From: Phormidesmis sp.
Lineage (GTDB): Bacteria > Cyanobacteriota > Cyanobacteriia > Leptolyngbyales > Leptolyngbyaceae
DNA length: 64,000 nucleotides
Assembly (NCBI GenBank): GCA_965248535.1
Contig: CBDFJR010000002.1
Location: 1,856,001 to 1,920,000, forward strand
Direction: 5' to 3'
The position numbers and the translations under genes were made by a program. The notes below the pieces were generated by a model that worked only from the letters and a program-made list of their open reading frames with translations, did not search any database and was not told where the DNA came from. Position 1 is the stretch's first letter. Every line of letters starts with the position of its first letter. Below are positions 45,517 to 48,395 of the stretch, in pieces.

Positions 45517-45882
45517 TTAAAATCGCTGGTATAAAATCAATCGATTGCCCTCTGGGTCATAGGCGTAAATTTCTCTGCCGTGAGAGGGCGTGAGAATCTC
45601 TCCCGGTGGAGGATAGCCCATTTGAGTTAGATGCCCGATCGCCGCTTCTAGATCCTCAACCTCTAGACATAAACTCATGGCGGGGAATGGAGTCGAAACA
45701 GGGGGCTGGTCTAGAGTGGGCTGATAGATTCCCAATCGCAAGCTAGGAAGCTGAAACTCTGCATAAACATGGGGAATCAGCAACGTGGGTTCTAAACCGA
45801 GTAGACGATCGTAGAACTCGATCGCTCGATCAAACTGATTTGCCGCCAAAGTCACCCACGCCGATCGACAGACAAATTTCAT
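45517..45882 (-). CDS. VOC/glyoxalase family protein
   Basis: VTLAA..FY..LLG, SLCLEVEDL, HGREIYAYDPEGNRL. Confidence 0.88.
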   Translation of the reverse strand: MKFVCRSAWVTLAANQFDRAIEFYDRLLGLEPTLLIPHVYAEFQLPSLRLGIYQPTLDQPPVSTPFPAMSLCLEVEDLEAAIGHLTQMGYPPPGEILTPSHGREIYAYDPEGNRLILYQRF

Positions 45883-47210
45883 GGAAAACCTCCGAGAAAC
45901 CCTGATGCTTCAGTACAGGGAGGGATAGGAGCGGCGACTGGATCGAGTCGCCAATCTCTTAGGCTTCTCACAGAATAGATGCTATACTGTGAGGCATGAC
46001 GCAGAAAGCCTTCAAGTACAGAATTTATCCAACGCCTGAGCAAGAATCCTTGCTCAGGCGCACGATGGGCTGTGCTCGCTTGGTGTATAACCGCGCCCTT
46101 GCCTTGCGAACTGACGCATGGTACAACGACCAGAAACGAGTCGGATACAGCGAGACATCTGCGAGTTTGACTGAGTGGAAGAAAAACGAAAGCCTGAGCT
46201 TTCTCAATGAGGTCAGTTGCGTTCCGCTTCAACAGGGATTGAGGCATCTGCAAACCGCGTTCTCCAACTTCTTTGCAGGACGGGCGAACTATCCCACTTT
46301 CAAGAAGAAGCGAAATGGCGGCAGTGCAGAGTTCACCAAGTCTGCCTTTAAGTGGAAGGATGGGCAACTGTTCCTGGCAAAGTGCCTGGAGCCGCTCAAC
46401 ATTCGCTGGAGCCGCACTCTGCCCGATGGTGTTGTGCCTTCCACCGTCACGGTGAAGCTCTCTCCTGCTGGAAGATGGACGGTTTCTCTGCTGACGGATG
46501 TTGAGATTGAGCCATTGCCCACCTCTCTCAACCAAGTTGGGATGGATTTGGGCATCACCAGTTTGATCGCTCTGAGTACGGGCAAAAAGGTTGTCAATCC
46601 TAAAGGCTTCAAAGCAAAACGTGCCAAGCTCAACCGAGCGCAGAAAGCGTTGAGCCGGAAGCAAAAAGGGTCGAACAACCGATATAAAGCTCGAATCAAA
46701 GTCGCTAAAGTTCATGCAGAAATTAGCGATGCTAGAAAGGATTTTCTTCATAAGTTGACGACTCAATTGGTGCGTGAAAACCAAACCATCGCCGTTGAGG
46801 ATTTGGCTGTGAAGAACATGGTGAAGAATCGGAAACTTGCCAAATCCATCAGTGATGCGAGTTGGGGTGAATTGGTCAGACAACTTGAATATAAGTGCGA
46901 CTGGTACGGTCGAAACTTCGTCAAGATTGACCGTTGGTTTCCGAGTTCTAAACGATGTGGCAGTTGTGGTCACATCGTCGATCAGTTGCCGTTGAATATC
47001 CGGGAATGGGACTGTCCCAACTGTGAGATACATCACGACCGGGACATCAACGCAGCCAAAAACATACTCGCCGCAGGGCTTGCGGTGAAAGTCTGTGGAG
47101 CGAACATAAGACCGGATAGGCATAAGTCTGATGGCAGTTGCGATGAAGCAGAAAGGTCTAAGAAGTGATTCTTGGAATCCCTGTACCTTTTAGGTTGGGG
47201 AGGATGTCAA
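45883..47210 (+). mobile_element. IS200/IS605-family element, tnpB only (IS1341-like)
   Basis: Left end: target TCAT, guide GAAA, hairpin CCCTG..CAGGG (45900-45920). Right end: guide GAAT, hairpin, terminal TCAA (47207-47210). No HIP1, no tnpA. Confidence 0.9.
45996..47168 (+). CDS. tnpB: RNA-guided endonuclease TnpB
   Basis: HTH start KAFKYRIYPT; RuvC D (GMDLG), E (AVEDL), D (HDRDINAA); zinc ribbon CGSC..CPNC. Confidence 0.96.
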   Translation: MTQKAFKYRIYPTPEQESLLRRTMGCARLVYNRALALRTDAWYNDQKRVGYSETSASLTEWKKNESLSFLNEVSCVPLQQGLRHLQTAFSNFFAGRANYPTFKKKRNGGSAEFTKSAFKWKDGQLFLAKCLEPLNIRWSRTLPDGVVPSTVTVKLSPAGRWTVSLLTDVEIEPLPTSLNQVGMDLGITSLIALSTGKKVVNPKGFKAKRAKLNRAQKALSRKQKGSNNRYKARIKVAKVHAEISDARKDFLHKLTTQLVRENQTIAVEDLAVKNMVKNRKLAKSISDASWGELVRQLEYKCDWYGRNFVKIDRWFPSSKRCGSCGHIVDQLPLNIREWDCPNCEIHHDRDINAAKNILAAGLAVKVCGANIRPDRHKSDGSCDEAERSKK

Positions 47211-47226
47211 AGTCAAAAATCTCTAA
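47070..47226 (+). ncRNA. Predicted TnpB omegaRNA (scaffold plus ~16-nt flanking guide AGTCAAAAATCTCTAA)
   Basis: Position inferred from known TnpB biology (overlaps the tnpB 3' end and right end); CCGCAGG/CTTGCGG hairpin at the start; boundaries approximate. Confidence 0.6.
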
Positions 47227-47312
47227 AAAATCCGCTGATAGGCACAAGCAAAATCTGGCTCAAACGCTAAATTAAAAGGTGTGACTCGTCCTTATAATCG
47301 AGGGTTTTTGCA

Positions 47313-48395
47313 ATGACCGCTACACTCTCTGCACCTCAGTCGATCGAGGCTTGGTTAGGCGACGAAGCAGACGATCTGCTCACCCACCAGGCAAAAGTTT
47401 CTAAAGATTTGCTGCATTTGCCCGGTTCAGACTTTATTGACAGAACGTTTGCCTATAGCGATCGTTCGCCGCAAGTGCTTCGCAGTCTCCAACAACTCTA
47501 CTCGTTTGGGCGCTTGGCCAACACTGGATATTTGTCAATCTTGCCCGTCGATCAGGGCATCGAGCATTCGGCGGGTGCATCGTTTGCCCCAAATCCGATT
47601 TATTTTGATAGTGAAAATATTGTAAAACTGGCGATCGCCGCAGGCTGCAACGCGGTGGCGACGACCCTAGGGGTGTTGGGCAGCGTCTCTCGTAAATTTG
47701 CTCACAAGATTCCCTTTATCACCAAGATCAATCACAACGAGTTGCTGACCTTTCCCAATAATTTTGATCAGTTTATGTTCGCCTCAGTCGAGCAAGCGTG
47801 GAATCTGGGATCAGTAGCAGTTGGGGCGACGATTTATTTCGGTTCGCCTGAGTCGAGTCGGCAGATTCAAGAAGTCAGCCGTGCCTTTGCTCGGGCCCAT
47901 GAGCTAGGCATGGCAACGGTTCTCTGGTGCTATCTCCGCAATCCCGCGTTTAAGCAAGATAAAGACTATCACTTAGCGGCAGATTTGACGGGTCAAGCCA
48001 ATCATCTAGGAGTGACGATCGAAGCCGACATCATCAAACAAAAACTGCCCGAAGTGAATAACGGCTATGGCGCAGTTGCCCAAGCCACGGGCAAGAGCTA
48101 TGGCAAAACTGACAAGCGCGTTTATTCTGACCTCACGACCGATCACCCGATCGATTTGACCCGCTATCAGCTTCTCAACTGCTATTCAGGACGAGTCGGC
48201 TTGATCAACTCAGGCGGCGCGTCAGGAAAAGCCGACTTTGCCGAAGCGATTCGCACGGCCGTGATCAACAAGCGGGCAGGAGGCACTGGACTGATTTCGG
48301 GACGCAAGACCTTTCAGCGTCCGTTTGATGAAGGCGTGAAGCTATTTCATCAGATTCAGGATGTCTATCTGTCGCCCGATGTCACGATCGCCTGA
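47313..48395 (+). CDS. fbaB: Class I fructose-bisphosphate aldolase
   Basis: [40 protein letters not shown]. Confidence 0.95.

Follow-up and report, generated by a model that had tools for sequence, protein, structure and literature searches.

A tnpB-only IS200/IS605 element at the ATGA start of a glyoxalase-family gene in Phormidesmis sp.: target rule, frequency at start codons and host-gene retention across its family

The element and its host locus

The window analysed here, a stretch of 64,000 nucleotides from the genome of a Phormidesmis sp. (genome G000, contig C2), carries a tnpB-only element of the IS200/IS605 type that sits exactly at the start codon of a VOC/glyoxalase-family gene, as a first-pass annotation made from the DNA letters had claimed. 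The TCAT that flanks the element on its left is the reverse complement of the ATGA with which the VOC gene begins. All statements of that annotation about the sequence itself check out, including a GGAGG 6 nt before the ATG, a GAAA next to the left-end hairpin and a palindrome enclosing TGcTATACT. By comparing the element with its copies in the same genome and with relatives from many cyanobacteria, we establish its anatomy and boundaries, the rule by which its target is selected, how often its family is found at start codons and that host genes are retained. The features of the locus are the following (positions are those of the window).

45517–45882, minus strand: VOC/glyoxalase-family gene, 121 aa; its ATG (45882–45880) adjoins the element
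45879–45882, plus strand: target tetranucleotide TCAT and predicted transposon-associated motif (TAM) of TnpB; host sequence, not duplicated
45883–47210: tnpB-only IS200/IS605 element, 1,328 bp, delimited by the homology limits common to five copies in its own genome
45883–45995, plus strand: left end, 113 nt, delimited from sequence, DNA folds and family comparison
45889–45893: CCTCC in an A-rich linker, GGAGG on the VOC strand, 6 nt before the VOC ATG
45896–45899: guide GAAA, directly 5′ of the left-end hairpin
45900–45920: left-end hairpin CCCTG/CAGGG, from the DNA fold
45933–45952: second left-end hairpin
45967–45993: palindrome CTCACAG..CTGTGAG enclosing TGcTATACT; fold −7.6 kcal/mol, z −3.3
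45983–45988: TATACT, extended −10 of tnpB, inside the palindrome
45996–47168, plus strand: tnpB, 390 aa, intact, identified from Pfam domains and structure homology
47092–47210, plus strand: right end and 3′ part of the predicted omega-RNA scaffold
47175–47178, plus strand: right-end GAAT
47178–47201: weak right-end hairpin, −4.4 kcal/mol, z −0.07
47207–47210: cleavage tetranucleotide TCAA, the last four bases of the element
47211–47312: native leader of the VOC gene with its promoter region, displaced by the insertion and common to the VOC gene and the divergent aldolase gene; aligns with the VOC–aldolase spacer of the congeners
47313–48395, plus strand: DeoC/LacD-family (class I) aldolase gene (Pfam DeoC, E 1.1e-66), divergent neighbour of the VOC gene

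How well defined are the borders of the element? A BLAST search against its own genome finds four further copies (B–E), of which two are full-length with about 80% identity, one is internally deleted and one is a 416-bp miniature. Homology among the five copies spans exactly 45879 to 47210, with TCAT at the left edge and TCAA at the right end in 5/5, and on the right all own copies and their relatives terminate in ..GTCAA. The first base of the element is G in the window copy, which begins GG, and C in the others; copies B–E and most relatives read TCAT/CG.. or TCAT/CA.. on the left and ..AA/ on the right (a slash marks the junction). Because all copies share TCAT, conservation alone cannot separate it from the element, and this, like the deviating first base, would fit a misplaced boundary, in which the element includes the ATG or adjacent bases and the true start was destroyed and replaced. 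Empty sites make such an error extremely unlikely. In 7/7 congeners (same genus) the VOC and aldolase genes lie divergent, about 115–120 bp apart, with no element between them; the VOC orthologues, 70–76% identical, begin at the aligned ATG, and the congener leader aligns with the window right of 47210, right up to that ATG. The congener starts read ATGG and not ATGA, so that the ancestor of the window sequence must have read ATGA, and the boundary of the window copy is fixed approximately by these alignments. For copy B the empty site is exact to the base in 7/7 congeners (...gatgag/ATGAGC...): its own locus has ...gatgag beyond the right end and ATGACC beyond the left end, placing ATGA exactly at the junction and continuous with the right flank. 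Moreover, a 673-nt metagenome contig from a relative of about 83% identity joins 45870 to 47226 without the element. The host gene of copy C has no orthologue in the congeners (35–38% paralogues only) and hence no empty site. The element has no terminal inverted repeats, and the exact empty sites show no target duplication, TCAT being present on the left side only. The boundary is further supported by covariation of the flank with the left-end guide, as expected of a target (see below), and by the published empty sites of a similar element group, which give N/ATGA (PMC4810608). The empty alleles at both loci thus agree with the junction drawn by the first-pass annotation, as does the displacement of the native VOC leader, which aligns with the congener leader and now lies 1.33 kb from its gene.

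The protein encoded by the element is an IS200/IS605 TnpB, combining helix-turn-helix, RuvC-like and zinc-ribbon domains (Pfam HTH_OrfB_IS605, PF12323; OrfB_IS605, PF01385; Cas12f1-like_TNB, PF07282; all over cut-offs). Its residues 3–363 match the ISDra2 TnpB structures 8bf8 and 8exa with E 7.8e-79 (a further ISDra2 TnpB structure is 8h1j), and its DLG, IAVEDL and HDRD motifs, which we take to be the catalytic residues, align with those of ISDra2 TnpB. With its RuvC motifs aligned to those of an active homologue, the protein is probably not a TldR, a nuclease-dead repressor. According to the list of open reading frames (ORFs), tnpB is the sole ORF in 45883–47210; tnpA is absent from the element, which is therefore non-autonomous. 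Elsewhere in the genome there are 11 Y1_Tnp matches, and a tblastn search with the TnpB protein returns 26 rows. By analogy with ISDra2 TnpB, the right end would be expected to supply the guide RNA, and the transposase target to double as the TAM; the first 16–20 nt (plus strand) of 47211–47312 may then be the omega-RNA guide. The ISDra2 target and TAM is a pentanucleotide, whereas the target of the window element is the tetranucleotide TCAT.

Target rule and start-codon insertions across the family

In IS608 of Helicobacter pylori, the tetranucleotide 5′ of the subterminal hairpin selects the cleavage site, and the first-pass annotation had carried this rule over to the window element by mapping GAAA to TCxT. 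We fetched 80 loci encoding TnpB relatives (74–85% identity) from many cyanobacteria, out of 438 found, and placed a left end of the window type in 66 of them. The 14 unused loci either have no such recognisable left end (L032, L040, L048, L074–L076, L086, L093, L095, L098, L099 and L104) or have tnpB cut at the locus edge (L103 and L108). Adding the five own copies and counting a site shared by related strains only once gives 63 independent events, of which 51 are flanked by TCAT and 12 by TTAT. The guide 5′ of the left-end hairpin is GAAA in 49/52 TCAT elements and AAAA in 11/12 TTAT elements (regular-expression parse, with six misparsed cases read directly and L097 by eye), so that a change at target position 2 is accompanied by one at guide position 1. 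On the right, the hairpin is preceded by GAAT(C) and the last four bases are TCAA. The left-end hairpin is clear, with compensating pair changes across the relatives. On this comparative evidence the IS608-type guide/target rule holds for the family, and the covariation strengthens it. The family resembles IS608 in its subterminal hairpins, of which the right-end one is weak in the window copy, and in the identical right-end pair GAAT/TCAA, and differs from it in the left target and guide (TTAC/AAAG in IS608, TCAT/GAAA here) and in tnpA, which IS608 has and the window element lacks. Beyond the four bases, the TCAT-family events show no preference for an extended target motif.

An autonomous IS605 whose tnpA and tnpB diverge is located at about 684040–685740 of the same contig (G000:C2, locus L113). 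On the left it has a TTAT flank and AAAA before the hairpin; on the right, GAATC and a hairpin are followed by ..TTCAA. This end architecture is that of the TTAT sub-family, making L113 a candidate transposase source for the tnpB-only copies.

How frequent are insertions at start codons? We counted an event as a start event if, in the script-rebuilt empty site, the ATG of the flank is the most upstream in-frame ATG of an ORF that is 80 codons or longer. Start events make up 16 of the 51 independent TCAT insertions (L030, L031, L037, L041, L043, L045, L046, L061, L066, L078, L082, L087 and L100, and own copies A, B and C), including L082, which was reclassified as a start on account of a 794-codon ORF that continues past the end of the locus; 4 of the remaining events fall in ORFs and 31 are intergenic. 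At two further loci, L059 and L084, the site is 18 codons inside the first ATG of an ORF. Pfam domains are found in 14/16 start-event ORFs (none in L043 and L078), and most of these domains begin no more than about 15 residues after the ATG (HMA at 6, ankyrin at 4, phosphoribosyltransferase at 7, Hpt at 8); the VOC protein itself matches Pfam Glyoxalase over residues 8–115 (E 4.7e-9). As background, the 36,178 TCAT sites of the own genome are 6.0% start-like, 73.2% in long ORFs and 20.8% intergenic, and in the pooled locus flanks 6.7% of TCAT sites are start-like. Against all TCAT sites the observed 31% is a five-fold excess (binomial P 2e-8 to 1e-7), an enrichment of the kind that the first-pass annotation anticipated, and hits inside ORFs are nine times rarer than expected (P 9e-23). 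Insertion at start codons is a genuine habit of the family and, as far as we found, has not been published.

The explanation that we consider probable is that the window element is a tnpB-only IS200/IS605 element of the IS1341/IS605B type with an N/ATGA target, and that its start-codon pattern is a by-product of this target and of purging. A Y1 transposase supplied in trans would integrate the element as single-stranded DNA immediately 3′ of TCAT, which would be chosen via pairing with the GAAA at the foot of the left-end hairpin. Since ATGA reads TCAT on the complementary strand, any opposite-strand gene that starts ATG-A is a legitimate site, and an insertion there would leave the reading frame untouched. 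Gene-breaking insertions are purged, and start-codon insertions therefore come to about one-third of the survivors. The habit would thus follow largely from the mirror image of TCAT and ATGA together with the loss of gene-breaking insertions, and most, perhaps all, of the start-codon excess would reflect survival and not aiming.

Several observations weigh against this by-product explanation. Among sites that spare ORFs, the start share of 34% exceeds every null of non-disruptive sites that we built, namely 22% for the own genome, 14% for the flanks and 12% for the flanks minus the events (P 0.044, 4e-4 and 9e-5, respectively; 1.5- to 2.8-fold), with gene calls that are crude (longest ORFs of at least 100 aa) and a null in which every intergenic site counts as equally tolerated. 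Of the full-length own copies, 3/3 sit at start codons. In addition, left ends with a CCTC resembling a Shine–Dalgarno (SD) sequence are at starts in 4/6 cases versus 12/45 for the others (Fisher p 0.069). These points would suit an adapted niche, in which ATGA starts are an evolved safe harbour favoured beyond mere tolerance, and the left end is a portable leader, with a U-rich tract by the ATG, in some sub-families an SD and possibly a promoter pointing outward, that keeps host genes expressed. We regard this adapted niche as possible, if unlikely. The residual start excess over non-disruptive sites is suggestive only. The SD association fades to 5/10 versus 12/45 (p 0.25) once four sub-family loci from metagenomes are added; these (L169, L196, L202 and L238) are the apparently real left ends among six matches with a TCAT-like context in a metagenome scan with a left-end 14-mer, which returned at least 118 loci, nearly all of them matching by chance. 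Nor do the non-start intergenic events lean to the 5′ sides of genes (left neighbour on the plus strand in 11 and on the minus strand in 9), and in one Heteroscytonema assembly 0/7 copies of what looks like a recent burst are at start codons, one being inside a 353-codon ORF. Thus, of the first-pass proposal that the element targets ATGA start codons, the over-representation stands, and it shrinks to a small excess over non-disruptive sites, while the events between genes and the burst both speak against aiming.

The Heteroscytonema copies (L050–L056) are seven in number, near-identical and with identical left ends.

The left end as leader and the fate of host genes

Does the element provide the VOC gene with new expression signals? 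In the by-product explanation the VOC ORF would be kept, its own leader and promoter would be lost to a distance of 1.33 kb, and the gene would be translated from the left-end leader, which in this sub-family happens to carry GGAGG. Transcription may come from read-through from the old promoter or from a start inside the element, and the GGAGG may be used in translation. The first-pass annotation had described the GGAGG as a ribosome-binding site donated by the element. In the window sub-family this part stands: GGAGG lies at an ideal 6-nt spacing from the host ATG and pairs with a generic anti-SD at −10.2 kcal/mol, and in copy B the left-end GGAGG has replaced a native GGAG. Nearly all left ends also begin with about 10 A-rich nucleotides, giving a U-rich stretch before the host ATG. 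All three features favour the portable leader of the adapted niche. At the level of the family the proposal does not carry over: CCTCC is kept only in a sub-family, an outcome that the first-pass annotation itself had counted against its proposal, the left-end SD is −2.7 kcal/mol or weaker in 10/16 start events, and SD strength does not set start events apart from non-start events (Mann–Whitney p 0.50). As a donated ribosome-binding site, the GGAGG is confined to a sub-family and its use is unproven.

The further suggestion that the element may replace transcription signals fares no better. A consensus promoter scan of 45700–47400 finds 0 promoter-like sites against 1.3 expected, and no sigma-70-type promoter, and a minus-strand TAnnnT near the palindrome occurs in 17/41 left ends and has no link to start events (p 0.71). 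Neither a conserved SD nor a conserved promoter tracks the start insertions in the family, as would be expected of a start-codon-seeking element with an outward ribosome-binding site. We find it unlikely that, for IS200/IS605 elements with a TCAT/ATGA target, start codons are a preferred safe harbour and the first ~20 bases of the left end are selected as a translation leader; if this were true, a selfish element would routinely replace host 5′ untranslated regions without killing the gene, and could rewire regulation.

The lack of an outward promoter in the scan is equally in keeping with a silenced gene, cut off from its promoter, unexpressed and not yet decayed, with GGAGG as a coincidence. 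The native promoter is 1.33 kb off, with a convergently oriented tnpB in between; the insertion occurred after the split from the congeners (70–76% protein identity, none with the element); and a related host ORF, 92 codons long at L078, is cut to 44 by a premature stop in one strain (L067). Nonetheless, the VOC ORF is full-length with its domain intact, and the own copies of the element are only about 80% alike and so not recent. L066 and L069, in which an element lies at the identical start codon of a phosphoribosyltransferase gene, also speak against silencing. The elements of the two loci are 88% identical and the genes 91%, so the insertion is probably older than the split of the two loci; with dN (non-synonymous divergence) at 0.044 and dS (synonymous divergence) at 0.396, their ratio is 0.11. 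These values point to an old insertion with a gene still under selection, a situation that the adapted niche would predict as well. Taken together, we consider silencing of the VOC gene quite unlikely.

Relation to known elements and minor observations

The target class of the window element has been described before. Kapitonov, Makarova and Koonin (2016; PMC4810608) report that the tnpB-only IS605B-1_MA of Microcystis, with 46 copies, 12 examined empty sites and termini TT...CG, inserts at N/ATGA. As characterised in that paper, IS605B-1_MA and ISC1-1_MA of Microcystis aeruginosa are, like the window element, non-autonomous cyanobacterial IS200/IS605 elements with only tnpB (or only iscB), which insert next to ATGA without duplication, with empty sites verified (PMC4810608). 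Read on the other strand, the TT...CG termini given there for the IS605B-1_MA group are the left CG... and right ...AA of the window family (PMC4810608). The TnpB and end sequences differ from those of the Microcystis elements, and the window copy begins GG instead of CG. The window element inserts directly 5′ of ATGA and is an ordinary member of this published target class, with G as its deviating first base. The caution in the first-pass annotation that such elements may already have been reported was thus justified for the N/ATGA target; the link to start codons is a different matter. A full-text term count of PMC4810608 gives 0 for "start codon", and our full-text literature search, which covered sources outside ISfinder and subscription journals, found no paper tying IS200/IS605 insertion to start codons.

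IS1, IS10 and ISAba1 switch on neighbouring genes with outward promoters, and at the VOC gene an element end likewise replaces the upstream signals. Their outward or hybrid promoters act at variable distances; here, in contrast, the junction is at the start codon itself, and the window element supplies, if anything, a translation leader, with no outward promoter found in the scans. IStrons, in which an IS200/IS605 element is combined with a group I intron, insert harmlessly near or in genes through RNA splicing, whereas the elements at start codons land outside the reading frame.

For genome annotation, these results provide a rule: a TCAT-flanked tnpB-only element often marks the true start codon of its divergent neighbour. 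They also mean that, in one-third of the surviving insertions of the family, the entire upstream region of a gene has been exchanged, with the gene remaining under selection. Should the left end prove to drive translation, it would be a natural portable leader and a cheap predictor of host genes rewired by TnpB elements.

Some minor observations concern the copies and their ends. The miniature (G000:C5:1507598–1508017) has both ends and no tnpB, and like the internally deleted copy (C5:~249860–250864) it is flanked by TCAT and not located at a start codon. The right-end hairpin is clean in the relatives and weak or degenerate in the window copy, which could make that copy difficult to mobilise or impair its guide RNA. 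An Rfam scan of the window yields sub-threshold matches only, among them RAGATH-18 at 47092–47154 (26.1 bits versus a gathering score of 44.9, E 0.036), which lies within the 3′-terminal part of tnpB, the expected location of the guide-RNA scaffold.

At L092 (junction ~2406), the element separates the AT of TCAT from the G that opens the right flank and thereby interrupts an ATG read on the tnpB strand. When the empty site is rebuilt, a 211-codon ORF begins at this ATG, so that the start codon is here destroyed and not preserved. On the strand of the host gene, the right end (47207–47210, and all right ends) begins TTGA, which at an ATGA that is a stop/start overlap would give TGA in the upstream frame after one changed codon; no stop/start overlap occurs among the 16 start events.

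Finally, the promoter region of tnpB is a recurrent part of the left end. A TGnTAnnnT extended −10 is bracketed by an inverted repeat in 51/62 distinct left ends (loci L029–L107 and window 45967–45998), and in 36/51 of these the −10 ends 6–7 nt before the A of the tnpB ATG, a spacing that predicts a leaderless tnpB mRNA. In 14 left ends, of the Microcoleus lineage, an insert of about 19 nt with AAGG precedes the tnpB ATG.

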